A stretch of DNA of 33,986 nt from a virus (UHGV-0175871); one strand, 5' to 3'. Shown: positions 1 to 33,986, numbered from the stretch's first letter. Notes: generated from the letters alone by a model not told the origin. Made by a program: numbers and translations.

Positions 1-228
1 ATGTGTTCCAACGAAAAGGTCCGTGATTGGCATCGTGCTGATGTGATTGCGGGACTTAAGAAAAGAAAGCTCTCTTTATCAGCTCTTTCTCGGCAGTTTG
101 GTTATGCGCCAACAACATTAGCTAATGCGCTAGAACGGCACTGGCCAAAGGGCGAACAGATTATTGCTAACGCCCTTGAAACTAAACCGGAAGTCATCTG
201 GCCTAGCCGATATCAAGCAGGTGAATAA
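1..228 (+). CDS. ner: Ner, DNA-binding negative regulator of early transcription
   Basis: 75-aa product [48 protein letters not shown]... matches my recollection of Mu Ner; lies immediately upstream of the transposase gene. Confidence 0.9.
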
Positions 229-3219: not shown

Positions 3220-3443
3220 TGTCACGGAATATCAAAATGGCAACGGAAGTAAAGACCTGGTTACAGGAGCGCGGCAGCCACGTCAACGAATCCTGGCTGG
3301 GCGTGGCCCGCCCGGTGCTTGAAATCACCTGCCCACCACCGGAGCTTGTCAGGAATGCTGTCAGGATTATGGAGCATAAATCCGGGGTTGCCCGTTCCGT
3401 ATGGACGGCCCGCCTTAATGGTTGCCAGATTATCTGGCGTTAA
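3216..3443 (+). CDS. kil: Small early protein at the Mu kil position (possible Kil)
   Basis: 75-aa ORF whose ATG overlaps the B stop (ATGATG); assignment is by position and size only. Confidence 0.45.
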
Positions 3444-3475
3444 TAACGGCTTATTTATTTGTGAGGAATAACAAA

Positions 3476-3745
3476 ATGGCAAAAGTAATCTTTGAATTTA
3501 ACCGCATGGAAGATGTTGAGTTTCAGAAAAAAGGAGGTTTCTTTGTAGGAATGAGTGTGCAACTGGGAGAACAGTCTCCTAAGGAGCAAATCGGACCGCA
3601 TGACGTGATGGCAGGCATTATCAAGAGCATGGCTCCTGAAATTATTGAAAAAGCAACCCAGGAGTTGTTGAAGTCAGCCAGAGAACTTGGGCTGGAAGCC
3701 GAAGGCGAGTTATTCCGGTATAACCCGGATGCAGCCAAACATTAA
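3476..3745 (+). CDS. Hypothetical early protein
   Basis: 89 aa from the internal ATG at 3476 (MAKVIFEFNRMEDV...), preceded by GAGGAA; the upstream part of the track ORF overlaps the previous gene. Confidence 0.5.
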   Translation: MAKVIFEFNRMEDVEFQKKGGFFVGMSVQLGEQSPKEQIGPHDVMAGIIKSMAPEIIEKATQELLKSARELGLEAEGELFRYNPDAAKH

Positions 3746-3761
3746 TTTCAGGAAAGGAGGC

Positions 3762-4052
3762 ATGATGATAATCCCTCGCAAAAGATGGTCACGCGAAGAC
3801 CGGGAATTTATCGAAACCAACGTCGGGAAGCTGACCGTTGAAGAAATGGCGAAAAAACTGAACGTTGCCCCAACCGCCCTACAGGCACATGCCAGAAGGC
3901 ACGGAATATCGTTGTGTGCATACCGGGTCAGTGAGCACGACAAATATTTGTGTCGTGAACTTTATAAAGAAGGCCTGGCTATTCATGTGATAGCCCAGAA
4001 GATGGAATTAAGCAATCGTGCTGTATCCGGCATTGTATACAGCGAATATTAA
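3762..4052 (+). CDS. Hypothetical early protein, possible HTH
   Basis: 96 aa from the ATGATG at 3762 with a strong AAGGAGG RBS at 3754-3760; segment LTVEEMAKKLNVAPTALQAHARRHG looks helix-turn-helix-like. Confidence 0.55.
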   Translation: MMIIPRKRWSREDREFIETNVGKLTVEEMAKKLNVAPTALQAHARRHGISLCAYRVSEHDKYLCRELYKEGLAIHVIAQKMELSNRAVSGIVYSEY

Positions 4053-6096: not shown

Positions 6097-6159
6097 GAAT
6101 CAAATCCTTTAATACGTTCAGGGCGGTGCAGCAACACCGCCTTCATGGAGATACGCATC

Positions 6160-6708
6160 ATGCGCGCATCATTGATTAAATTAATTCATGTCGCCCGTCG
6201 CGATCTACAACTCGACGATGACACTTACCGCGCCTTTCTGGTGCAGTGCACGGGCAAAACCAGTTGCCGCGAGCTGTCCGTTGCACAACTGGAACGGGTG
6301 CTCGATGCCATGAAAGAGCGCGGTTTTAAGAAGCAGAAAAAACATCCCCGCCGTCGCTTTAAGGGGCATGTCACACCGCGCGAGAAGATTTACAAAATCT
6401 GGCAGCAGATGTTCCTTGATGGTTTCGTTTCCGATATCAGCGACGCTGCGCTGGACAAATACGTTGAGCGCCTGACAGCCAGACGTAATGGCGGTCAGGG
6501 TGTTTCCACGCTGGCATGGTGTCACGGGGAATCGTTGCAGGTTGTGCTTGAAACGCTCAAACAGTGGCATATGCGCTGCATCCGTGAAGCCTTTGCCCGA
6601 CATGGTGTGCCTTTACCTGTGAGCGAAACTGGGCGGGAGCTGCGCGGCTATGATGCACTGACCAGTGCGTATGCCCGTGCACGAAACAGCGGGAGAATTG
6701 CTGTATGA
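6160..6708 (+). CDS. gemA: GemA, gene expression modulator
   Basis: MRASLIKLIHVARRDLQLDDDTYRA... matches my recollection of Mu GemA; GGAGA RBS 7 nt before ATG 6160; an in-frame upstream ATG at 6145 is an alternative start. Confidence 0.8.
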   Translation: MRASLIKLIHVARRDLQLDDDTYRAFLVQCTGKTSCRELSVAQLERVLDAMKERGFKKQKKHPRRRFKGHVTPREKIYKIWQQMFLDGFVSDISDAALDKYVERLTARRNGGQGVSTLAWCHGESLQVVLETLKQWHMRCIREAFARHGVPLPVSETGRELRGYDALTSAYARARNSGRIAV

Positions 6709-7154
6709 AACAGATGAAAGAGCAGGATTTATTCGAAGACCTCCGGGACGACAGCGTTCTGGAATATCTTCATGATTACCAGGAAAACACCGCTTATCCG
6801 GCGTTACTTTCTGAACTGAACGCACTGCTGCGTAAAGAGCTGGCCCGGATTGGCGCAGACCCTGCCCATTCCCTTGAGCTGGTTGTGGCGATTTGTCGCC
6901 ATATCGGCGGGATGCAGGTTTATGTTCCGAGGGGGAATATTCTGGAGAATCTTGTCCGGGATATGCGTATCTGGCGTGATTTTAACGGCCATAATATTCC
7001 TGAACTGGTTCAGCGTTACGGGGTGACGTATAAAACCGTCTACAAGGCCATCAAACGGATGCGACGTCTGGAGCGCAATAAATACCAGCCGGATTTGTTT
7101 TACCCCTCCCCGAACCTGCCTCACCCCGTTCGTCGTCCGCCACGACGCCCTTAA
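6705..7154 (+). CDS. mor: Mor, middle-operon transcription activator (Mor/C family)
   Basis: 149 aa; the core LELVVAICRHIGGMQVYVPRG...IWRDFNGHNIPELVQRYGVTYKTVYKAIKRMRR matches Mor; extra proline/arginine-rich C-terminal tail; ATG overlaps the gemA stop (ATGA). Confidence 0.85.
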   Translation: MKQMKEQDLFEDLRDDSVLEYLHDYQENTAYPALLSELNALLRKELARIGADPAHSLELVVAICRHIGGMQVYVPRGNILENLVRDMRIWRDFNGHNIPELVQRYGVTYKTVYKAIKRMRRLERNKYQPDLFYPSPNLPHPVRRPPRRP

Positions 7155-7158
7155 TCAA

Positions 7159-7184
7159 TGAAGCCGGTAAATCCGGCTTTTTTT
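7159..7184 (+). terminator. Rho-independent terminator at the end of the early operon
   Basis: Stem AAGCCGG / loop TAAAT / CCGGCTT followed by seven T, 5 bp after the mor stop. Confidence 0.75.
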
Positions 7185-7199
7185 ATGCCTCCGGCACCA

Positions 7200-7228
7200 T
7201 GAAGCAGACCACGTTTAAATCTGCTTCA
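7200..7228 (+). promoter_or_regulatory. Inverted repeat upstream of the endolysin gene (candidate operator or 5' UTR hairpin)
   Basis: TGAAGCAG-13 nt-CTGCTTCA, ending 12 bp before the ATG at 7240. Confidence 0.35.
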
Positions 7229-7239
7229 CAGGTGCTTTT

Positions 7240-7836
7240 ATGGAAAATCAAAAATTCCCCCCGGCCTTTGAGCATGCGCTGAATTTCATTCTGCGTCCCG
7301 ATATCGAAGGCGTCTATGTCAATGACCCCACTGACCGTGGCGGCGAAACCAAATACGGCATTTCTGACCGCCGCGACGGTGTGATTGACGGCAAAACCGA
7401 TGTCAACGGCGACGGCAAACCGGATACCCGCATTAAGGATTTAACCCGCGAACAGGTCGCGCAGATTTACTGGCGCGATTACTGGCTGCCTGCCGGATGT
7501 GACCAGTGGCCTGATGGCGTGGCGATGTTTGTGTTCGATGCAGCGGTTCAGCATGGCGTTAAAAAAGCCATCAGAATTTTGCAGGAAGCCGCTGATGTGG
7601 ATGCTGACGGCATCATCGGCCCGCGTACCCGTAAGGCCGTGAGTCTGTCCACCCCGGACTGGTTGTTGGCCCGCTGCATTGTCCGTCGTTCCCGCTTTTA
7701 TGCCGACATCATCAAGTCAAAACCCGCCCAGGGTAAATACCTGAACGGCTGGTTTAACCGCATGGAAAAACTGACCGACGCCTGTCTGGAAATCATCGAT
7801 ACCCCTCTGGGCATCATGTCCGCCACGCGGGGGTGA
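7240..7836 (+). CDS. Endolysin, GH108 lysozyme domain plus peptidoglycan-binding domain
   Basis: N-terminal FPPAFEHALNFILRPDIEGVYVNDPTDRGGETKYGIS is the GH108 signature; C-terminal ADGIIGPRTRKAV...YLNGWFNRM resembles PG_binding_3. Confidence 0.85.
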   Translation: MENQKFPPAFEHALNFILRPDIEGVYVNDPTDRGGETKYGISDRRDGVIDGKTDVNGDGKPDTRIKDLTREQVAQIYWRDYWLPAGCDQWPDGVAMFVFDAAVQHGVKKAIRILQEAADVDADGIIGPRTRKAVSLSTPDWLLARCIVRRSRFYADIIKSKPAQGKYLNGWFNRMEKLTDACLEIIDTPLGIMSATRG

Positions 7837-7837
7837 T

Positions 7838-8065
7838 ATGGGCAAAGGCTGGGATGCCTCACTGAAAGCCGGGCGGCGTGACCGCCTGCGTCAGGAGGTT
7901 CTGCACCGCATGGCCGGAGGTTCGCCCCCGAAACCGCTGGACTATACCGGTCATGACGGCACACACGCCAGCTACTACATGCGTGGCTGGAACTCCGTGG
8001 ATACACGGGACATTTTCTGGCAGTGCCAGAAGTACAAGGAAAAACTCAATGCACAGAATGAATAG
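7838..8065 (+). CDS. Hypothetical small protein in the lysis cassette
   Basis: 75-aa ORF starting 2 bp after the endolysin stop; no recognisable family. Confidence 0.4.
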   Translation: MGKGWDASLKAGRRDRLRQEVLHRMAGGSPPKPLDYTGHDGTHASYYMRGWNSVDTRDIFWQCQKYKEKLNAQNE

Positions 8066-8459: not shown

Positions 8460-9055
8460 CCCTTTCAGGCATCGCTTCTGTCCTGCTGAAAGCCGGGCCG
8501 GGGCTGATTCGTTCCGTCGGGCGCTGGTTTGGTGGCAGCACATCTGCCGCCGCTGACTCGGTGGCCGGTATGGTGGAAAGCGTCCGGGAAAGCCTGCCGG
8601 TGGCTGAACAGCAACGCATTCTGGAACAAAAACTGGTGATGCTGTCACCGGAGCAACTGATGCAGCTGGAAACCCTGAAAATTCAGCTGCAACAGCTGGA
8701 GGTGGAACGGCAGAAGCTGGTGCTGGCTGACCAGCAGGCCGCACACCACGAACAGCAGGAAACCATCCGCAATGGTGACAACGCCACGGACAGCTATGTG
8801 CGCCAGACGCGCCCGCTGCTGGCCCGCCTTTCCTGTTACAGCAGTCTGGCCTATGTGCTGTTGCTTTCCTGCGGCCAGATTGCCGGAGCCATTGCCGGTG
8901 CCAGAGGTATCACGCTGCATATGCCGTCACCGGACTGGGATATCACGCTGATGTTACTTACCCCGGCGCTGGGCTATCTCGGCGTGCGAACTCTTGACGG
9001 CTTTGCCCGTTACAGCAAGTCAAGCAAGGACAAAATTTCTGCGGGGCTGAAATGA
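8447..9055 (+). CDS. Holin-like membrane protein (possibly GTA-type 3TM holin family)
   Basis: 202 aa with central coiled-coil (LEQKLVMLSPEQLMQLETLKIQLQQLEVERQKL) and C-terminal hydrophobic helices; follows a GH108 endolysin, as in GTA lysis modules. Confidence 0.45.
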   Translation: MDPLTLSGIASVLLKAGPGLIRSVGRWFGGSTSAAADSVAGMVESVRESLPVAEQQRILEQKLVMLSPEQLMQLETLKIQLQQLEVERQKLVLADQQAAHHEQQETIRNGDNATDSYVRQTRPLLARLSCYSSLAYVLLLSCGQIAGAIAGARGITLHMPSPDWDITLMLLTPALGYLGVRTLDGFARYSKSSKDKISAGLK

Positions 9056-9279
9056 CCGACGAAATCGACCGCATCAGTGAAGTGGTTCTGAACGAACGTC
9101 AGAGCGTCGTTAAAGCCTGGCAGACGCGGACAAAAGAAGCGCCCCACAGCCGGGGCTTCTGCAATGACTGCGGGAACGTTATTCCGGCACAGCGCCTTGC
9201 GGCGCTGCCGGATGTGGTGACCTGTATTGACTGTCAGCAGATACGGGAACACAGGAGGAAATCGTGTCCTGGGAAATGA
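9052..9279 (+). CDS. TraR/DksA-family C4 zinc-finger protein
   Basis: 75 aa with CNDCGNVIPAQRLAALPDVVTCIDCQ (CxxC-17-CxxC) typical of phage TraR-like proteins. Confidence 0.7.
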   Translation: MTDEIDRISEVVLNERQSVVKAWQTRTKEAPHSRGFCNDCGNVIPAQRLAALPDVVTCIDCQQIREHRRKSCPGK

Positions 9280-9569
9280 TCAGAGCCAACTGGCCCATTC
9301 TGTGGGCATTGCTGATGACAGGAATAAACCTGCTTCAGCTGATTCTGGCGAAAACCTACGTCAAACGCGAAGAGTTTGATTCACTCCGTTCCCGCATGTC
9401 GGTGATGGAAAGCCAGGTACACCATTTACCCGACCGTGATGAGTTCCACCGCCTGCAACTGGATATCAGCAACCTGCGGGGAGAAATCAAAGAGCTGGGG
9501 CCATCCATCCGCCAGGTATCCCGCATCAGCGATTTGTTATTAGAGAACGAGTTAAAGGAAAAAAAATAA
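9264..9569 (+). CDS. Small membrane-anchored coiled-coil protein (DUF2730-like)
   Basis: GTG start with AGGAGG RBS; N-terminal TM helix WPILWALLMTGINLLQLIL followed by coiled coil. Confidence 0.5.
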   Translation: MSWEMIRANWPILWALLMTGINLLQLILAKTYVKREEFDSLRSRMSVMESQVHHLPDRDEFHRLQLDISNLRGEIKELGPSIRQVSRISDLLLENELKEKK

Positions 9570-9862
9570 TGGCGATGAAAGAGATCCTCACTGAAGACCG
9601 TCGTCTTGTGTTGCTGCGTTCCCTGCTGGACTGTGGCGACAGCGCGAATGAATCCGTGTTGCAGACCTGCCTTCAGGCCTACGGTCATAAGGTATCCCGT
9701 GATGTGGTGCGCACCCAGCTTGCATGGCTGCGCGAGCAGGGGCTGGTTCGTCTGTCTGATGTGGGCGGCTGTTACGTGGCTGAAATCACCGGCAGCGGTG
9801 AGGATGTGGCAAACGGCCTGTCCAGCGTTCCGGGCGTTAAAAAACCCCGTGCGAGGGACTGA
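9569..9862 (+). CDS. Hypothetical protein, possible winged-helix
   Basis: 97-aa ORF tightly packed with neighbours; no family recognised. Confidence 0.45.
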   Translation: MAMKEILTEDRRLVLLRSLLDCGDSANESVLQTCLQAYGHKVSRDVVRTQLAWLREQGLVRLSDVGGCYVAEITGSGEDVANGLSSVPGVKKPRARD

Positions 9863-9864
9863 GC

Positions 9865-10164
9865 ATGGCCCGAAAACTGAAGCCGTTAAGTCGCGGAGAA
9901 CGGGCCGTCGTGCGGCAGCTGGCGTACTGTCTTGTGCTCGCGGATATTGAGCAAAACGCCATTGTCCGTGCATACGAACAACAGACCGGAAAGCCCTGGA
10001 ACCCGGATGCACCGGATACCCCCATGAAACGTGCCCTGCGTTCATCACCGGCATGTGCGCGGCTGTGGAAGCTGCTGGGTAAGGATATCCGCTCCGTTCG
10101 CGAAGAAATATACGCCGGTCTGAAAACACCGGGAACTGAAGACGGGGGCCGTCGTGAACCGTAA
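9865..10164 (+). CDS. Hypothetical protein
   Basis: 99-aa ORF starting 3 bp after the previous stop. Confidence 0.4.
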   Translation: MARKLKPLSRGERAVVRQLAYCLVLADIEQNAIVRAYEQQTGKPWNPDAPDTPMKRALRSSPACARLWKLLGKDIRSVREEIYAGLKTPGTEDGGRREP

Positions 10165-10301
10165 AAAGAATCCGATAAGTAAAGCGTCCCGTGATGAACT
10201 CCGCCGTCTGGCGCACAACCTGACATGGCGGGAAATCCAGAGTGGCGCACTGAAATCTGCATACGAAAGTTTACAGCGTAGTGAGCAACAGGAGGGCACA
10301 C

Positions 10302-10883
10302 ATGGAAAATGAACAACGCCCCACCCGTGGCCGTCTTTCCAAAGTGGATTTACTCCCGGACAGCATCCGGGAGCAGTTGCATCAGATGCTGCGGGAAAAG
10401 CGGCACACGCAGGAGGAAATCCGCGAAGCCATCAACGCCCTGATTGACGAACACAACCTGCCGGAAGAGATGCAGTTAAGCCGGACGGGCTTAAACCGCT
10501 ATGCCATCCGCATGGAAAAAGTCGGGGCAAAAATCCGTGCCTCCCGCGAAATGGCCGAAGTCTGGGCGGCAAAGCTGGGTTCCGCGCCGACGTCAGACGT
10601 CGGCAAACTGCTGATGGAGTTTGTAAAAACGCTGGCTTTTGAAACGTCCATGTCGATGGCAGAAGACGACAAGCCTGTTGCACCGAAGGCGCTGGGGCAA
10701 CTGGCGCTGGTTGCCCAGCGTCTGGAAGCGGCAGCCATGACCAGCCATAAACGCGAGAAAGCGATCCGTGATGCGTTTGCGCAGGAGATGGCAGAGAAAA
10801 CCGAAGAACTGGTCAGAACGGGCGGTCTGTCAGGTGGTGCGGCTGACACCATCAAACGAGACATTCTGGGGATTAGCGTATGA
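10302..10883 (+). CDS. Terminase small subunit-like DNA-binding protein (DUF3486-like)
   Basis: 193 aa from ATG 10302 with GGAGGG RBS; N-terminus RGRLSKVDLLPDSIREQLHQMLRE; directly precedes and overlaps the large terminase gene. Confidence 0.65.
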   Translation: MENEQRPTRGRLSKVDLLPDSIREQLHQMLREKRHTQEEIREAINALIDEHNLPEEMQLSRTGLNRYAIRMEKVGAKIRASREMAEVWAAKLGSAPTSDVGKLLMEFVKTLAFETSMSMAEDDKPVAPKALGQLALVAQRLEAAAMTSHKREKAIRDAFAQEMAEKTEELVRTGGLSGGAADTIKRDILGISV

Positions 10884-14740: not shown

Positions 14741-14768
14741 CCCTCCCGCCGTAAATCCCCCTGAAACG

Positions 14769-14796
14769 CATCAGAAACGCGTTTTTTATTCTGATG
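14769..14796 (+). promoter_or_regulatory. Inverted repeat in the F-I non-coding region
   Basis: CATCAGAA-ACGCGTTTTTTA-TTCTGATG, 8-bp arms. Confidence 0.4.
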
Positions 14797-14818
14797 GCGT
14801 GAATGTGCATTCTGACTT

Positions 14819-14858
14819 TTTTGAAGGTGCTGTGGCGTTTTTGAAGGGGTTTTGAAGG
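14819..14858 (+). repeat. Three direct copies of TTTTGAAGG (candidate protein-binding array)
   Basis: Copies at 14819, 14839 and 14850; spacing 20 and 11 bp, roughly two and one helical turns. Confidence 0.5.
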
Positions 14859-14879
14859 GGGGGTTCTTCCCGTTTTCAG

Positions 14880-14905
14880 TGAAGCCGGTAAATCCGGCTT
14901 TTTTT
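14880..14905 (+). terminator. Rho-independent terminator, exact 26-nt copy of the one at 7159
   Basis: TGAAGCCGGTAAATCCGGCTTTTTTT identical to 7159-7184; lies between F and I. Confidence 0.7.
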
Positions 14906-14954
14906 CTGCCTTCCGCATACTGACCGTCGGTAACCCCAGACGACGGAGACTGAC

Positions 14955-15917
14955 ATGAAACCGGAACTGCTGGCGCTGTGTTTTTCCCTGCCAGAACCCA
15001 TCCCTGAGCTGACACCTGCTCAACTGCCGGAATGGCTTGAACTCGTTCCTGCGGGTGAGTTCACCGGGCGCGATGGCCGGACGTGGATTAACCGCAATCC
15101 GCATGAGGTGGTTGCCCGTTCGTCCGACATCAAAATTCCGGTGGACATTGAACACGCCACCGAAATTAAAGGGCAACGCGGTGATGAAGCCCCGGCGTAT
15201 GGCTGGGTGGAAGAACTGCGGGTGACAGACAGCGGCACCATTGAAGGCCGTGTTGTCTGGAGCGAATACGCCCGGTGGATGCTGAGCGAGCGCCGCTACC
15301 GCTATTACAGCCCGGCGTTTTTCCATGACGCGGAGGGTGTGGTGACGCGCCTGTCCAGCGTCGGGCTGACCAACAAACCTAATCTGGACTTTCCTGCACT
15401 GAATACGGAGAAAAACCCGATGACAGTACCTGTGCAAATCACCGGCCTGCTTGGGCTGGCTGAATCTGCCACGGTGGACGATACCGTGGCCGCCATTAAA
15501 CAACTTCAGGAGAACGAACAGGTGGCGCTGAACCGCGCACAGACACCTGACCTGACGAAGTTTGTACCGGTGGAAACCCACAATCTGGCACTGAACCGTG
15601 CCGAAACCGCAGAACAACGCCTTCAGCAACTGGAAGAGAAGGAAGCAGAAGCGCTTGTGGATGCGGCCATCGAAGCCGGAAAAGTGGCCCCGGCAAACCG
15701 TGACATGTTCCTTGCCACCTGCCGCACGGAAGAAGGCCGCAAACAGTTTGCGGAGTACACCAAAGGTGCACAGCCGCTGGTGAACAACGACAAGCCCAGC
15801 CAGGGCAAGGATAAACCCGCGCAGACACTGACCGACGCCGAACTGGCGATGTGCCGCAGCATGGGTATTACCGGGGAAGAGTTCCTCGCCGCTAAACCTA
15901 AACAGGAGAATAACTGA
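14955..15917 (+). CDS. I: Head maturation protease/scaffold, Mu I-like
   Basis: 320 aa; immediately upstream of the major capsid gene; coiled-coil scaffold-like C-terminal half. Confidence 0.7.
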   Translation: MKPELLALCFSLPEPIPELTPAQLPEWLELVPAGEFTGRDGRTWINRNPHEVVARSSDIKIPVDIEHATEIKGQRGDEAPAYGWVEELRVTDSGTIEGRVVWSEYARWMLSERRYRYYSPAFFHDAEGVVTRLSSVGLTNKPNLDFPALNTEKNPMTVPVQITGLLGLAESATVDDTVAAIKQLQENEQVALNRAQTPDLTKFVPVETHNLALNRAETAEQRLQQLEEKEAEALVDAAIEAGKVAPANRDMFLATCRTEEGRKQFAEYTKGAQPLVNNDKPSQGKDKPAQTLTDAELAMCRSMGITGEEFLAAKPKQENN

Positions 15918-16819: not shown

Positions 16820-16843
16820 CCCGTCATCCGTAATCTGTAACCC

Positions 16844-16893
16844 GCAGTTAAAAGGCGCTGTGAATGCCCTTTTAACTGCCTTTTAAAAGGCAG
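16844..16893 (+). terminator. Stem-loop cluster after the major capsid gene (attenuator or mRNA-stabilising hairpin)
   Basis: GCAGTTAAAAGG-12 nt-CCTTTTAACTGC overlapping the perfect palindrome CTGCCTTTTAAAAGGCAG; T-rich. Confidence 0.45.
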
Positions 16894-16897
16894 AGTC

Positions 16898-28862: not shown

Positions 28863-29393
28863 ATGGAACTCAGAAACGTCACGCGTTATTACCCGGAAGA
28901 GATGCCTTATGGTGAAAACATTCAGTATTTCCGCAGTGAAGACGGACAGGATTTTTATGAATCACTGGATAAATTCACGAAGAAATACAAATTGTGTATT
29001 CACCCGGAAACCGGCGTGATTTATTCAATGGCGGAAGACGTGTCCCGTCTTTATCCGGCTGGCTTCACCATTGTGGAAGTGGATGAACTGCCGGAAGGTT
29101 TTGGCATTGAAGCCTGCTGGTATTACAAAGACGGCGAAGTGCTGCCGGTTCCTGTTGATTATTCGCAACTGGCAGAAAAACAACGCCAGAGCCTGCTGAA
29201 TGAAGCGAAGGACATCACCTCCGACTGGAAAACCGAGCTGGAGCTGGGCACCATCAGCGACGATGATAAAGCGCGTCTTACGCAGTGGATGGCATATATC
29301 AAAGCGGTAAAGGCTCTGGATTTAAGCACCGTTACTGACGAAGCCTCCTTTTACTCCATCAACTGGCCGGAGCGTCCCGATGCCGCAGCTTAA
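28863..29393 (+). CDS. Tail fibre assembly chaperone (Mu U / lambda Tfa family)
   Basis: 176 aa from ATG 28863 with AAGGAG RBS; C-terminal ...DDDKARLTQWMAYIKAVKALDLS typical of Tfa proteins. Confidence 0.7.
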   Translation: MELRNVTRYYPEEMPYGENIQYFRSEDGQDFYESLDKFTKKYKLCIHPETGVIYSMAEDVSRLYPAGFTIVEVDELPEGFGIEACWYYKDGEVLPVPVDYSQLAEKQRQSLLNEAKDITSDWKTELELGTISDDDKARLTQWMAYIKAVKALDLSTVTDEASFYSINWPERPDAAA

Positions 29394-32300
29394 AGGTGTG
29401 ATTAAAACGCCCACGGGAGAACCGCTGGGTGGCGCAACCATTACACTGACCTCCCTGCACAACCGTGCAGGGATTCTGAAAAGTGTTTTCAGCCATGTCA
29501 CCACACAGAACGGGGAATATGACTTCACCGTTCTGCCGGGTGTGTACAGCGTTCGCCTGACACAAAGCACACAGCGCCTTTCAGAAATCGGTGTCATCCG
29601 CGTTTATGAAGATTCAGCGGACGGTTCGCTGAATGATTTTCTGGGCGCAACCGATATTGACCTGCGCCCGGAAGCCCTGAAGAAATTCGAAGAGCTGGCG
29701 CAACAGGCGCAGCAAAGCGCAGAAAAAGCAGGAGAGCACGCCACCGCTGCTGAACAGGCCCGCCAGGATACAGAAGCGCTCGCCGGGGAAATACAGCAGG
29801 ATGCAGAAGAAATCGCGGGTAATGTGCAGAAAGCTGAAGAGCTGGCCTCTGAGACCAACCAGAATGCCGCCCGGGCAGAACAGGCGGTCAAAGATGCCGA
29901 TAAGATAGTCCAGAAAGCGGTCGATAAACTTGCTGATGCCGCAACGCTGACCGGTGAGGCAAAAGCCAGCGCCGAAGCGGCAGCAAAAAGCGAGCAGAGC
30001 GCGAAACAGCACAGGGACGAGGCGCAACGGATAGTTGATGACCTGAAGGGAACCAACGCCAGCACGACGCAAAAAGGCCTGGTGCAACTCTGTAGTGATA
30101 CAGACAACGACAGCGAAGAACTGGCCGCCACACCAAAAGCCGTCAAAACCGTCATGGACGAGACGAAAACAAAAGCGCCACTGGACAGCCCGGCATTCAT
30201 CGGCACGCCCACCACACCAACCCCGCCGGACGATGCGACCGGGCTGGAGATGGCGAACGCGGCATTTGTTCGCAAACTGCTTGCTGCGCTGGTTGACTCG
30301 TCACCGGAAGCCCTGGACACACTGAACGAGCTGGCAGCGGCGCTGGGCAATGACCCGGAGTTTGCGACAACAATCTTGAACGCGCTGGCGGGTAAACAAC
30401 CACTCAGTGACGTGTTAACCGCAATCAGTAATCTGGAAGAACGGGCAGATAATCTTCTGTGCTTTAATCATGACGGAAATGCTTCATTGTCTCCGCTGTC
30501 AGAAAAAGCCCGGTCACTGCTGGCACAGGCCACAGCGGAAGCCATGCGCAATGAGCTTGAGCTGAAAAGCGCAGCGGTAAGGGATATTCAGATAGACCTT
30601 TACGACAGCATGGAAGGCCGTGTTGCGCTTCCCGGTGCGTATGGTTACGGAATGACGGACGCCGGAGCACGTTCAATTATTGCCAGCGATATGGCGACTG
30701 TAGCCAGAACCGCTCACAACCTGCACCCGGGACGGTATTACACCTTTTCCACACAAACGGAAAAAACAACCGGAATAACAGAAATTATCTGGCTGGATAA
30801 TGGCCGGGGCGACAAAACCAGTCAGACAGCAACAAAGCTGGTTCTGTTCTTTGGAAAAGACGGACGGATTCTTATGACCGTTCGTGGCGATAATATCTCC
30901 GCCCCGGTCACCTGGACGAATCTGACGCCACAACTGGGCAATGCAGCACAAAAGGATGCGCAGGAGAGTATTTACGACCGCACCGAAGGCCGTCTGGCGG
31001 TTCCTGGCATGTTCGGATTCGGGAAAATATTTTCCAGCGGCGACAGGACCGAGTTTAAAACAGAGGCCGATTTTCTCCGCTGGGTAAAAACGGCAAAACC
31101 CGGACGCTATGCCGTTTATGCAGATACAAATGCGGTAATACAGGGCGTGCTGTTCAAGGGTACCGTTGAAATTATCTGGCCGGAACCTCAAACCAACCCC
31201 AATCCGGCATGTGTGGCTAAAATCATTATTTTTTACGGTATTAACGGCCACATTTATTACAATCGCTACTGGACTACCGGAGATGGTTATCTGGTTGGCT
31301 GGGAAAACCTGAAAGTCAACGAGGTTTCACTCCGGGCACTGATTGAAACCCGTGCGCCACTGAACAGTCCGACACTGACCGGAACGCCGTCCACGCCAAC
31401 ACCACCAGATGATGCAGCAGGTAATGAAATAGCCAATGCGGCGTTTGTCCGCAAACTGCTTGCTGCACTGGTTGACTCGTCACCGGAAGCCCTGGACACG
31501 CTGAACGAGCTGGCAGCGGCGCTGGGTAATGACCCGAACTTTGCGACGACAATCATGAACGCGCTGGCCGGTAAACAACCGCTGAACGATGTGCTGACGG
31601 CTATCAGTGAACTGACGCAACGGGCAGATAATCTTCTGTGCTTTAATCAGGACGGGAATGCTTCACTGTCTCCACTGTCAGAAAAAGCCCGGCTGCTGCT
31701 TGCTCAGACTACAGCGGAAGACATGCTGTCTGTTCTTGAGTTGCAAAAGAATACGTACAGCGCCCAGAGTGATATTTATGACCGGGCGGAAGATAAACTG
31801 GCTCTTCCTGGTGCATTCGGATTTGGTTATCCGTTTGGAAAAGAAGACCAGCTCACCTTTAAAAACACATCGGAGCTGACCACGTGGGTAACAAACGCTT
31901 ATCCGGGACGTTATGCGGTAACCGTCCCTAATCAGGGAACAATCATACCTGGTGTTTATTTTACGGGTATTCTTGATGTTATCTGGCAGATGAACCAGTA
32001 CGAAACAAAGCCCCCGTCAGATGCTGCAAAATGCATAATGTTTTATGCAGGAAACGGTGATATCTGGTTTAACCGATATATTTACGGGCGTCTTGTTGGC
32101 TGGGAGCGAATAAAGATATCCACAGCCGATATTTATAATGTTATGGGGGGGACCATCAGCAATGAGTGGGGAGACCCTGATGTTGGTGGACTGATTATTG
32201 CTGCATACCAGGGAACGACTGACGGAGATACAAAAATCAAGCTTGTGAGAGGGCAATATTACGCAGGCTCACGGCTGGGGCCGGTGGGAATTTCAGCGCC

Positions 32301-32454
32301 CTACAATCCAGCCGGAACGTATTCATCAAGCCCGCAATTCTACGTTATGGGAAATGCAGGTCATTCATTACCGGGTACATATCGCGCCCTGTCCGGGGTA
32401 ACAAACACCTATGGTTCCGACGCGATGATTGGGCTTTTTATTCGCACAGCGTGA
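29380..32454 (+). CDS. Side tail fibre protein, lambda Stf-like, with internal tandem duplication
   Basis: 1024 aa; N-terminal ...IGVIRVYEDSADGSLNDFL; Ala/Glu/Gln-rich coiled shaft; conserved TQKGLVQLCS...LAATPKAVKTVMDETKTKAPLDSPA...LDTLNELAAALGNDPEFATT..NALAGKQP block occurring twice. Confidence 0.85.
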   Translation: MPQLKGVIKTPTGEPLGGATITLTSLHNRAGILKSVFSHVTTQNGEYDFTVLPGVYSVRLTQSTQRLSEIGVIRVYEDSADGSLNDFLGATDIDLRPEALKKFEELAQQAQQSAEKAGEHATAAEQARQDTEALAGEIQQDAEEIAGNVQKAEELASETNQNAARAEQAVKDADKIVQKAVDKLADAATLTGEAKASAEAAAKSEQSAKQHRDEAQRIVDDLKGTNASTTQKGLVQLCSDTDNDSEELAATPKAVKTVMDETKTKAPLDSPAFIGTPTTPTPPDDATGLEMANAAFVRKLLAALVDSSPEALDTLNELAAALGNDPEFATTILNALAGKQPLSDVLTAISNLEERADNLLCFNHDGNASLSPLSEKARSLLAQATAEAMRNELELKSAAVRDIQIDLYDSMEGRVALPGAYGYGMTDAGARSIIASDMATVARTAHNLHPGRYYTFSTQTEKTTGITEIIWLDNGRGDKTSQTATKLVLFFGKDGRILMTVRGDNISAPVTWTNLTPQLGNAAQKDAQESIYDRTEGRLAVPGMFGFGKIFSSGDRTEFKTEADFLRWVKTAKPGRYAVYADTNAVIQGVLFKGTVEIIWPEPQTNPNPACVAKIIIFYGINGHIYYNRYWTTGDGYLVGWENLKVNEVSLRALIETRAPLNSPTLTGTPSTPTPPDDAAGNEIANAAFVRKLLAALVDSSPEALDTLNELAAALGNDPNFATTIMNALAGKQPLNDVLTAISELTQRADNLLCFNQDGNASLSPLSEKARLLLAQTTAEDMLSVLELQKNTYSAQSDIYDRAEDKLALPGAFGFGYPFGKEDQLTFKNTSELTTWVTNAYPGRYAVTVPNQGTIIPGVYFTGILDVIWQMNQYETKPPSDAAKCIMFYAGNGDIWFNRYIYGRLVGWERIKISTADIYNVMGGTISNEWGDPDVGGLIIAAYQGTTDGDTKIKLVRGQYYAGSRLGPVGISAPYNPAGTYSSSPQFYVMGNAGHSLPGTYRALSGVTNTYGSDAMIGLFIRTA
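30175..30546 (+). repeat. Copy 1 of the ~372-bp direct repeat inside the tail fibre gene
   Basis: Aligns in frame with 31354..31725, about 80-90% identity by eye, with perfect blocks of 26-32 bp. Confidence 0.85.
31354..31725 (+). repeat. Copy 2 of the ~372-bp direct repeat inside the tail fibre gene
   Basis: See copy 1; offset 1179 bp (393 codons). Confidence 0.85.
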
Positions 32455-33031
32455 GGAATGCATCGTGGAAATCAAAGAAATCATTAATCCCCGCTATACA
32501 GAAAATAGCGCTGTAGACTGTGACGTTTGGTTTGACGGCCAGCCGCAGCCAGTCCCTTACACTGCCACTCCTGATGATACATCAACAATCGGTAAGCGCA
32601 TCTGGCAGGAACTGCAAAGCGGCAAATGGGGCGAAATCGCCCCGTTCACCATCACGCCGGAGCTTATCGCAGCGGCAAAAGATGCCAAAAAGATGGAAAT
32701 CGAGGCGTGGCGCACAGAACAGGAAGCGCAGCCGTTCACGTTCGAATGGAACGGTCGCACCTGGAACGCTGGCCCCGACTCACTGGCCCGTCTTTATCCT
32801 GTGGTAATGGCGGCGAAATCTGACACAGCGCGGGACGTGATGACGTGGGGTGACGCCGATAATCAACAGGTGAAACTGTCAATGCCGGAACTGGAAGAAC
32901 TGGCGACAGCAATGGCGCAGGCACAGGTCGATCGCAATGACGGGATTTATCAGCGCCAGCGTGAAATGAAGGAGCAGCTTTCCCGGCTGTCCATACTGGA
33001 CGAGGTGAGAGCGTTAACTGTCGGTGATTAA
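32429..33031 (+). CDS. Putative tail fibre assembly chaperone, second module
   Basis: About 190-200 aa; likely GTG start at 32465 after GAGGAA (the track start is a TTG overlapping the fibre gene); assignment by position after the fibre gene. Confidence 0.45.
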   Translation: MGFLFAQREECIVEIKEIINPRYTENSAVDCDVWFDGQPQPVPYTATPDDTSTIGKRIWQELQSGKWGEIAPFTITPELIAAAKDAKKMEIEAWRTEQEAQPFTFEWNGRTWNAGPDSLARLYPVVMAAKSDTARDVMTWGDADNQQVKLSMPELEELATAMAQAQVDRNDGIYQRQREMKEQLSRLSILDEVRALTVGD

Positions 33032-33053
33032 ATAATCAGTATGTATAGTTTAT

Positions 33054-33081
33054 GACGATCGATAACATCATATCGATCGTC
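33054..33081 (+). promoter_or_regulatory. GATC-containing inverted repeat upstream of com-mom (candidate Dam-methylation-sensitive operator)
   Basis: GACGATCGATA-ACATCA-TATCGATCGTC: 11-bp arms each with a GATC, about 75 bp upstream of com. Confidence 0.55.
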
Positions 33082-33154
33082 GGTTTGCATCAATTGTGAT
33101 TAAATACCCCCAGCCCTCCGGGCGCTCATGTCTGGTTATTACACAGGGGGAATC

Positions 33155-33340
33155 ATGGACTCTGTTCGCTGTAAAAACTGCAATAAATTACTGTTTAAAG
33201 GAGGTTTTAAGCATATAGAAATTAAATGCCCTCGCTGTAAACGTTACATTGTCATATCGAATGCCAAAGAGCATCCCACGGAGCTGTATTGTGGGAAAAG
33301 AGAAGAAATCACGCATTCTGACAAAACCCTGCGTTATTGA
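33155..33340 (+). CDS. com: Com, zinc-finger translational activator of mom
   Basis: 61 aa from ATG 33155 after AGGGGG; [10 protein letters not shown]...[13 protein letters not shown]...[22 protein letters not shown] matches Mu Com. Confidence 0.8.
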
Positions 33341-33986
33341 GTATGAAGGCCGGATTGTCGGCTATGGTTCAAAGGAGCTGCGCGTTGAAACCATATCCTG
33401 CTGGCTGGCCCGCACAATCATTCAGACAAAACACTATTCTCGCCGTTTTGTGAATAACTCCTACCTGCATCTTGGCGTATTCAGCGGACGTGATCTGGTT
33501 GGCGTTCTTCAGTGGGGATATGCCCTTAACCCCAACTCAGGGCGTCGGGTCGTGCTTGAAACGGATAACCGGGGCTATATGGAACTGAATCGCATGTGGC
33601 TACACGACGACATGCCCCGCAACTCTGAATCACGGGCCATCAGTTACGCGCTGAAAACCATCAGGTTACTGTATCCGTCAGTTGAGTGGGTTCAGTCTTT
33701 TGCAGACGAACGCTGCGGACGTGCTGGCGTGGTATATCAGGCGTCGAATTTTGATTTTATAGGCAGCCACGAAAGCACGTTCTACGAACTGGACGGCGAG
33801 TGGTATCACGAGATAGCGATGAACGCGATTAAGCGCGGAGGGCAACGAGGTGTGTATTTACGGGCTAATAAGGAGCGGGCCGTGGTACACAAATTTAATC
33901 AGTATCGCTACATCAGATTCCTGAATAAGCGCGCAAAAAAGCGCCTAAACACCAAGCTATTCAGGGTTCAGCCATACCCGAAGTGA
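33291..33986 (+). CDS. mom: Mom, DNA modification enzyme (adenine modification, anti-restriction)
   Basis: Sequence ...[15 protein letters not shown]...[23 protein letters not shown] matches Mu Mom; GTG at 33291 gives 231 aa; in-frame ATGs at 33249 and 33261 are alternative starts; overlaps the 3' end of com. Confidence 0.85.

Follow-up and report, generated by a model that had tools for sequence, protein, structure and literature searches.

Two predicted Pm-type promoters and a single Mor/C-family gene in a Mu-like prophage

Introduction

How does a Mu-like phage that encodes Mor and no recognisable C switch on its late genes? This question is raised by UHGV-0175871, a stretch of 33,986 nucleotides (hereafter the window, to which all coordinates refer) that represents a Mu-like transposable prophage of E. 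coli, bounded by a Ner-type gene (1..228, Pfam HTH_35) at one end and by the mom stop codon (33986) at the other. Phage Mu uses a three-tier cascade in which Mor leads to C and C leads to the late genes. The original prediction for this window described the open reading frame (ORF) at 6705..7154 as the only Mor/C-family activator, and proposed either that this protein drives late transcription itself or that a C-like factor is present and too divergent to be recognised. The first alternative is favoured by the present analysis, as no second Mor/C protein was found and Pm-type boxes precede both late operons. The prophage most likely has a two-tier cascade (i.e. early to Mor to late) in which Mor turns on late transcription directly.

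Results

Identity and number of Mor/C-family genes

The early region encodes a transposase, a MuB-type ATPase, Gam, a gp11-like protein and GemA, followed by the ORF in question. The gemA homologue (6145..6708, + strand; Pfam GemA, E 9e-33) is the penultimate gene of the early operon, and its stop codon overlaps the start of the ORF 6705..7154 (+ strand) in an ATGA. This ORF encodes 149 amino acids and matches the Pfam Mor family (PF08765) with 104.6 bits (cut-off 24.9; E=3.6e-30) over residues 31-131 and profile positions 3-107 of 107. Given this match, and identities of 63% to Mu Mor and 32% to Mu C, the sequence is clearly that of a Mor orthologue and not of a C orthologue. The gene also has gemA directly upstream at the end of the early operon and, downstream, a Pm-type box nearly identical to the Mu Pm element, and the product exhibits the traits of the family, being a small protein with an acidic N-terminal half and a basic C-terminal half, as seen in the sequence, and a helix-turn-helix (HTH) on the C-terminal side. 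Weak HTH_23/HTH_28 matches were obtained for residues 94-121, and helices were modelled at residues 98-105 and 109-126. The core of mor is under strong purifying selection, with a ratio of non-synonymous to synonymous differences (pN/pS) of ~0.1.

The number of Mor/C-family genes was examined using three approaches. Searches by tblastn with Mu Mor and Mu C found only 6720..7106 (E 6e-55 and 4e-16, respectively), the next-best match having E > 0.4. A hidden Markov model (HMM) of the family was constructed from Mu Mor, Mu C and 124 diverse members drawn from a 1.8-billion-protein representative search. With its filters off, it was compared to every stop-to-stop ORF of >= 30 amino acids in the six frames of the window (628 in all); a single match was obtained (6654..7151, E 1e-45) and the next had E = 1.6. 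Profile comparison, applied to the ORFs named in the original prediction, likewise detected no second Mor/C ORF. These results bear out the claim of a sole family member, and homologues of Mu gp19, gp20 and C were not found in the window. Two ORFs that the original prediction had named as possible second family members were rejected, as 9569..9862 is a homologue of Mu gp26 (61% identity) and 9865..10164 matched the Mor profile with a probability of 0.2% (hhalign).

Promoter following mor

The Mor site of Mu Pm is a 16-bp dyad at -51 to -36, centred on -43.5, in which two 5-bp inverted repeats flank a G/C-rich hexamer; this promoter has a recognisable -10 element and no -35 element (PMC4390567, PMC4287176). 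Directly past mor the Mu genome reads AGTAAAGCCGGTTAATCCGGCTTTTTTT...TATCCT (the reading immediately 3' of the gene being AGTAAAGCCGGTTAATCCGGCTTTTTTTACGTCCTCAATATCCT), and the AGTAA-AGCCGG-TTAAT of Mu with its -10 TATCCT matches the published dyad. The window reads AATGAAGCCGGTAAATCCGGCTTTTTTT...CACCAT at the equivalent place. The full element, AATGA-AGCCGG-TAAAT-CCGGCTTTTTTT...CACCAT, lies 11 nt after the mor ORF (2 nt past its stop codon). It contains a homologue of the Pm dyad element (i.e. Mor box 1, AATGA-AGCCGG-TAAAT; 7157..7172, + strand) and a -10-like hexamer (CACCAT; 7195..7200, + strand) that is in the register of the Mu TATCCT and predicts a start near 7208. Promoter 1 begins at ~7157 and not at 7185, the upstream limit originally assigned to this control region.

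An 8-bp hairpin with a T7 run (7160..7184, + strand) was detected by a terminator scan at this locus and has the features of an intrinsic terminator closing the early operon (folding energy of the RNA -12.6 kcal/mol, z = -3.4). This hairpin overlaps box 1 and the promoter spacer. As the element aligns with Mu Pm and also folds as an 8-bp hairpin plus U7, the hairpin past mor is predicted to be the early-operon terminator and a Pm homologue at once. The earlier view that a terminator and lysis genes directly follow mor was therefore accurate as to the hairpin and to the endolysin gene at 7240, and incomplete in treating the hairpin as a terminator alone.

The gap between mor and the endolysin gene is 85 nt. 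This GH108 endolysin gene (7240..7836, + strand; Pfam Glyco_hydro_108 and PG_binding_3) opens late operon 1 and is followed, within the lysis operon, by a homologue of Mu gp18 (7838..8065, + strand; 68% identity, E 3e-36), on whose orthologues PF26867 is recorded. The remainder of late operon 1, which extends from box 1 to a second box described below, encodes further lysis proteins, a TraR/DksA-type zinc-finger protein, DUF2730, gp26, gp27, the terminase, the portal protein and F. Since gp18 is the first gene of the Mu middle operon and its homologue sits just past the endolysin gene, the unit starting at box 1 is a merged 'middle plus lys' operon.

Promoter preceding the protease gene

The 26-mer TGAAGCCGGTAAATCCGGCTTTTTTT is present exactly twice in the window, at 7159..7184 and 14880..14905, with 0 occurrences expected by chance. 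The second copy is followed, 50 nt downstream, by the gene for a Mu I-type head protease/scaffold protein (14955..15917, + strand; Pfam Mu-like_Pro, E 1e-44), which opens late operon 2. This repeat of the box 1 element includes most of Mor box 2 (AGTGA-AGCCGG-TAAAT; 14878..14893, + strand). A hairpin with a T7 run extends over box 2 (14881..14905, + strand; terminator scan and RNA folding) and is the predicted terminator of late operon 1, and a -10 hexamer, CATACT (14916..14921, + strand), with the invariant A and T described below, predicts a start near 14929. The core of promoter 2, TCCGCATACTGAC, was aligned by eye with CCCGCAAACTGAC upstream of the Mu I gene, the location of PI. By this alignment the promoter 2 core is homologous to the C-dependent PI of Mu but carries a Mor box.

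A position weight matrix (PWM) was built from 23 box elements and scanned over the window. Box 1 and box 2 scored 34.0 and 33.5 bits, respectively, as compared to 8.2 bits for the next site and up to 18.2 bits for shuffled sequences. No weaker Mor boxes above the shuffle level were found elsewhere in the window, either with the PWM or with a 22-mer box core allowing 6 mismatches. In late operon 2, which starts from box 2, the PWM scan gave no further intergenic gap with a recognisable box before com-mom, and the gaps at 16820-16897, 18797-18961 and 21201-21286 contain no Mor box. The site scoring 8.2 bits (25783..25801, + strand; AGGGAAAACGGTAAATCTC) was rejected as an extra box, as it is within the shuffle range, lies inside a baseplate gene (25415..25951) and is probably a chance match.

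The segment upstream of box 2 (14741..14880) has other features of its own. It contains an additional hairpin with a T-run (~14766..14790) and three direct repeats of TTTTGAAGG at 14818..14862, and its map position, just upstream of I, is that of the strong gyrase site of Mu (Mu 17879/80).

Each of the two Mu activators fails at the other's targets, Mor being inactive at C-type promoters and C at Pm (PMC4287176). Because the two activators are so strictly promoter-specific, the occurrence of Pm-type boxes at late operons is meaningful. Both 7157..7172 and 14878..14893 agree in sequence and register with a Mor site and are candidates for binding. Mor, encoded at the end of the early operon, is the only phage activator of the Mor/C family. 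The module past mor would serve two purposes, ending the upstream transcript as RNA and acting as DNA as a Pm-type promoter with a T-rich spacer. Promoter 1 would then head one merged middle-plus-late operon, and the second copy of the module would end late operon 1 and start the head-tail operon at the I protease gene on a PI-type core.

Conservation in related prophages

A scan of one genome per species yielded 20 loci, of which 15 hold 7-10 kb on both sides of mor. Each of these 15 related loci has exactly one Mor/C ORF, adjacent to gemA and followed by lysis and morphogenesis genes; only Mu has two. The combination of one Mor/C ORF and the same two boxes was observed in 11 related prophages, namely two of Escherichia coli (loci L003 and L026), Klebsiella phage Kp4866-3 and others from Pluralibacter, Raoultella, Klebsiella, Serratia, Kluyvera and Brenneria. 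Box 1 is ahead of a GH108-type endolysin gene and box 2 ahead of the I protease gene in 11/11 cases. Two distant relatives, in Enterovibrio (L019) and Psychromonas (L021), yielded no recognisable repeated box, so the two-box pattern is demonstrated for the enterobacterial group only.

An alignment of 23 promoters showed the box core, GAA.CCGGT.AATCC, to be invariant or nearly so. The A (-11, position 2) and T (-7, position 6) of the -10 hexamer, located 22-23 nt past the box, were invariant in 23/23 promoters. These are the two most important bases of the sigma-70 -10 element. A TAAAT/TTAAT variant within the box was identical between both boxes in 10/10 tabulated genomes (i.e. the window and nine relatives). 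Several relatives have a box 2 without the T-run and part of the 3' arm in which the 5' box is kept, indicating that the box itself is under selection and not the terminator only.

These observations bear on whether the 26-mers are merely duplicated terminators, the target of Mor having been lost and late expression relying on the early promoter by way of read-through or antitermination. Both copies do fold as 8-bp hairpins plus U7, and the arms exhibit compensatory changes in relatives. Such a scheme is, however, very unlikely, given the base-for-base homology to Mu Pm, which is experimentally Mor-dependent, the fixed distance and invariant A and T of the -10 hexamer in all 23 promoters, the retention of the box where box 2 copies lack the T-run, and the strong purifying selection on mor itself.

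A further feature was observed at loci L005-L015, where an extra moron-like gene separates mor from box 1. The product is either a membrane protein of 104-110 amino acids or a protein of 162-172 amino acids with a signal-like N-terminus, and the gene would be co-transcribed with the early operon. Neither the window nor Mu has such a gene; most relatives differ from the window in having a moron between mor and box 1 and in having no tail on Mor.

Distribution of the single-gene layout

Prophages near-identical to that of the window were found in ~44/5,426 complete E. coli genomes. The copy in E. coli STEC383 is inserted in potE, and PGAP labels only one 'Mor transcription activator family protein' in it. 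Across a phage collection, one copy is present in 58/72 records with a Mor relative, and two copies are restricted to 14 records of the Mu, D108, SfMu and Yersinia types. Isolated phages with a single Mor/C gene include BcepMu, Vibrio phage martha and Kp4866-3. The published list of core genes of transposable phages has 'the late regulator Mor/C' as one gene (PMC8705779). A literature search for an explicit two-tier cascade in single-Mor phages returned indirect statements only (e.g. 'late regulator Mor/C' as well as a lone mor homologue in Fc02 and KS10).

The layout could also have arisen in a defective derivative of a Mu-type phage, with C and the middle operon deleted and the late genes silent. 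The element is known solely as a prophage in the collections searched, and a box directly past mor is as expected from Mu. Nevertheless, the structural and lysis ORFs of the prophage are all intact, the layout is kept across several enterobacterial genera as well as the ~44 complete E. coli genomes, and isolated single-Mor/C phages exist. The gp18 homologue has, moreover, been retained at another position and box 2 is of the Pm type, not a leftover C box. Loss of late expression by deletion is accordingly regarded as highly improbable.

C-terminal motif and tail of Mor

The original prediction credited the Mor homologue with about 20 extra C-terminal residues rich in proline and arginine. The extension exists and has this composition, but it is shorter. 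In an alignment with 23 relatives, the PDLF of the window Mor is in register with PSLL/PxLF at the C-terminus of Mu Mor and of further members of the family. As PDLF belongs to a conserved C-terminal motif, the true extension consists of 17 residues (YPSPNLPHPVRRPPRRP, Y133-P149; codons 7101..7151, + strand). The preceding QPDLF (residues 128-132; codons 7086..7100, + strand) represents the Q-x-x-L-F motif of the family and is the same as the C-terminal clamp-binding motif of MuC. In MuC, QPDLF is one of two clamp-binding motifs required for late transcription and corresponds to the family C-terminal consensus; the clamp-binding motifs of the family are reported to be an N-terminal Qx[DE][LM]F or DLF and a C-terminal QPDLF (PMC12867686). 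A C-terminal truncation of MuC (H129term) nearly abolishes activity, according to a preprint. By sequence match, the window Mor has clamp-type motifs at the N-terminus (EQDLF, residues 6-10) and C-terminus (QPDLF, residues 128-132), and only the DLF of EQDLF fits the consensus, likewise in Mu Mor.

The tail is confined to the nearest E. coli/Salmonella clade, where P/S/H/R exchanges occur and the length is kept. It is the least conserved segment of the locus, with a pN of 0.19-0.33 in the more divergent comparisons as compared to 0.003-0.064 for the mor core in all pairs. Between the window and locus L027, differences were observed at 9/51 positions of the tail, ~5/387 nt of the mor core and 1/94 of the following promoter. 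AlphaFold2, run on an alignment without the Mu Mor row, gave a pLDDT of <50 for residues 127-148. Long tails also occur elsewhere, as of 93 other family representatives with the C-terminal motif 85% end within 0-6 residues of it and 6/93 continue for 14-26 residues of similar low complexity, indicating that such tails arose repeatedly in the family. A source of the tail DNA was not found by blastn-short against all fetched loci and the window, with only orthologous tails being matched. On the Mu Pm register the tail codons occupy ~ -107 to -57 of promoter 1. The upstream limit of the region important in Mu Pm is -57 (PMC4390567), and the tail codons are therefore at or beyond this limit.

Our reading of the model and alignments is that the tail would be a weakly constrained, disordered extension that is probably neutral or at most modulatory. 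As it is poorly conserved and predicted to be disordered, the tail gives no evidence of a changed role for Mor. Other proposals can be made. The mor gene ends in ...RRPPRRP-TAA, 5 nt ahead of the hairpin 7160..7184, such that a ribosome slowed at the C-terminal Pro-stop would cover the 5' arm, which could adjust the extent of late-operon read-through or the accessibility of its own box to Mor. A second proposal is that the rapidly evolving Arg/Pro tail could modulate contacts with the clamp or RNA polymerase, one protein doing the jobs of both Mor and C, and Mor might, in a related idea, bind another site of unlike sequence in the C-less com-mom control region. Taken jointly, these ideas of a function for the tail and for where the stop codon lies are considered quite unlikely.

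com-mom control region

The original prediction also noted a com-mom module, which was confirmed by Pfam matches for com (33155..33340, + strand; Zn_ribbon_Com) and mom (33249..33986, + strand; Mom). Of the three control regions that it listed, those ahead of the two late operons have a Pm-type box in the register of Mu Pm, and the third (33031..33155) has no Mor box. This third region (33032..33154, + strand) is homologous to the Pmom region of Mu. It has a 28-bp palindrome (33054..33081; GACGATCGATA-N6-TATCGATCGTC) with two GATC sites that is homologous to the Dam/OxyR-controlled region of Mu. The position of the Mu C box (TTATGCCCCAATAA in Mu) is diverged, reading TTGTGATTAAATAC in the window, and 11 nt are missing further downstream. 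The sole intergenic match in the window to TTAT-N-ATAA has N8 and lies inside the mom palindrome. No convincing -10 at the right distance was found for a com-mom promoter in the Mor-box register, the C-box register or as an extended -10, by eye and by alignment with Mu Pmom. The sequence TGATTAAATA occurs twice, 72 nt apart (33025, 33097).

Conservation of the control region across four E. coli prophages is 90%. As compared to a Mu-type prophage of E. coli ST18 (L031), Mom is 97% and Com 73% identical. Other prophages of the group match the window from 33042 onwards and Mu-type prophages only from ~33165, inside com, which suggests a recombination junction within this gene. From these match boundaries, mom and distal com appear to be common to Mu-type phages and the control region specific to the C-less group. 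Relatives such as Kp4866-3 have no com-mom. Transcription of mom could result from read-through from the tail-fibre operon, from Mor acting at an unrelated site or from another factor.

A broader version of the last of these possibilities is that an activator outside the Mor/C family replaces C, for com-mom at least and possibly for all late genes. The mom control region is strongly conserved yet without a Mor box, and the window offers two candidates, namely a TraR/DksA-type protein (9052..9279, with a zf-dskA_traR match) and an early HTH protein (3687..4052, with a phrog_323 match). Against such an activator, perfect Pm-type boxes are present on both main late operons, where no extra factor is needed; the TraR-like gene is inside late operon 1 and so cannot start that operon; and Kp4866-3-like relatives without com-mom have the same two boxes and nothing else. 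Replacement of C by such an activator is therefore unlikely.

Other features of the prophage

The TraR/DksA-type gene within late operon 1 encodes a C4 zinc-finger protein of 75 amino acids (zf-dskA_traR, E 1e-11), which could, judged by family membership, act on the secondary channel of RNA polymerase. It is also present in the E. coli/Salmonella prophages of the group that were examined (STEC383 and loci L026-L029). The early ORF at 3687..4052 encodes 121 amino acids with HTH signatures, is assigned to phrog_323 ('transcriptional regulator, D5-like') and overlaps the ORF 3422..3745 by ~60 nt. A 52-amino-acid ORF (10154..10312) matches the N-terminal 39 positions of phrog_8988, the PHROG also matched by the preceding 99-amino-acid ORF (9865..10164), and looks like a partial tandem duplication. 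The tail-fibre ORF (29380..32454, 1024 amino acids) has a 300-nt internal direct repeat (30175..30474 and 31354..31653) with 83% identity and a spacing of 1179 nt.

Discussion

The regulatory genes of this prophage share features with both tiers of activation in Mu. The Mor protein is 63% identical to that of Mu and its gene likewise follows gemA and closes the early operon. The element downstream resembles Mu Pm in the dyad box, the GCCGG core, the T7 tract, the -10 hexamer 22 nt downstream and the overlapping hairpin. In Mu, however, Pm serves gp18-gp19-gp20-C only, whereas its homologue in the window would head the endolysin and packaging genes, and the window has a second copy heading the head-tail operon. 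Mu Mor ends in QPSLL, in contrast to the QPDLF and 17-residue Pro/Arg tail of the window Mor. The likeness to Mu C is one of predicted position in the circuit, as an activator of the lysis and head-tail operons at promoters without a -35 element, and extends to the homology of the promoter 2 core to PI and to the C-terminal QPDLF shared with MuC. There is, nevertheless, no C gene in the window, the window Mor is only 32% identical to C and the boxes are of the Pm type, not TTAT-N5-6-ATAA. Mu has four activator-dependent late promoters as compared to two that are recognisable here.

Three features define the Mu three-tier cascade: a second paralogue between mor and the lysis genes, a separate gp18-gp19-gp20-C operon, and C boxes (TTAT-N5-6-ATAA) at the late promoters. 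Each was looked for and none is present in the window, the gp18 homologue being located past the endolysin gene instead and the promoters ahead of lys and I having Pm-type boxes, which places the circuit outside the Mu class. The gene order agrees with that of the single-Mor/C transposable phages (BcepMu gp01, B3, Vibrio phage martha 12B12 and Kp4866-3), which have one gemA-adjacent gene followed by lysis and structural genes, and the two boxes recur in Kp4866-3 and further enterobacterial relatives. On these comparisons, the window circuit fits the single-Mor/C 'late regulator' class of transposable phages.

Several observations weigh against direct activation of the late genes by Mor. The case for this phage is one of sequence comparison. 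The -10 hexamer of promoter 1 (CACCAT) fits the consensus at 3/6 positions only. The compensatory changes that relatives show in the arms of the box 2 hairpin suit a terminator as well as a dyad site. No column of the Mor alignment tracks the TAAAT/TTAAT variant of the box, and the concordance of this variant between the two boxes carries little weight, as it may reflect shared descent or gene conversion and not co-adaptation. The divergence of the tail from that of L027 (9/51) exceeds the synonymous rate of the core (pS 0.034), which simple neutrality does not predict; with these small numbers, the excess of change between the window and L027/L026 could reflect a local recombination patch or diversifying selection. 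Finally, no Mor box is present in the com-mom control region (where the PWM reaches -30 bits at best), which keeps homology to the C-dependent Pmom, and a two-tier model therefore leaves at least one late function unaccounted for.

Since the literature already recognises phages that carry one Mor/C gene, the practical gain from the present analysis is modest. What it adds is a Pm-type promoter in the post-mor hairpin, an exact second box before the head genes and a PI core with a swapped activator box. For annotation, the hairpin past mor deserves a promoter label besides that of a terminator. The analysis also raises the question of what allows a Mu-type com-mom cassette to be expressed in a phage that has no C. 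A Pm-type Mor box is located on both late operons of a widespread enterobacterial Mu-like group, with relatives in at least six other genera, and the Mor-to-C relay of Mu is a minority variant among the phages compared and not the general plan. The PI core, which is homologous in both phages but is paired with a Mor box in the window and with a C box in Mu, provides a natural comparison for the origin of the activator relay.

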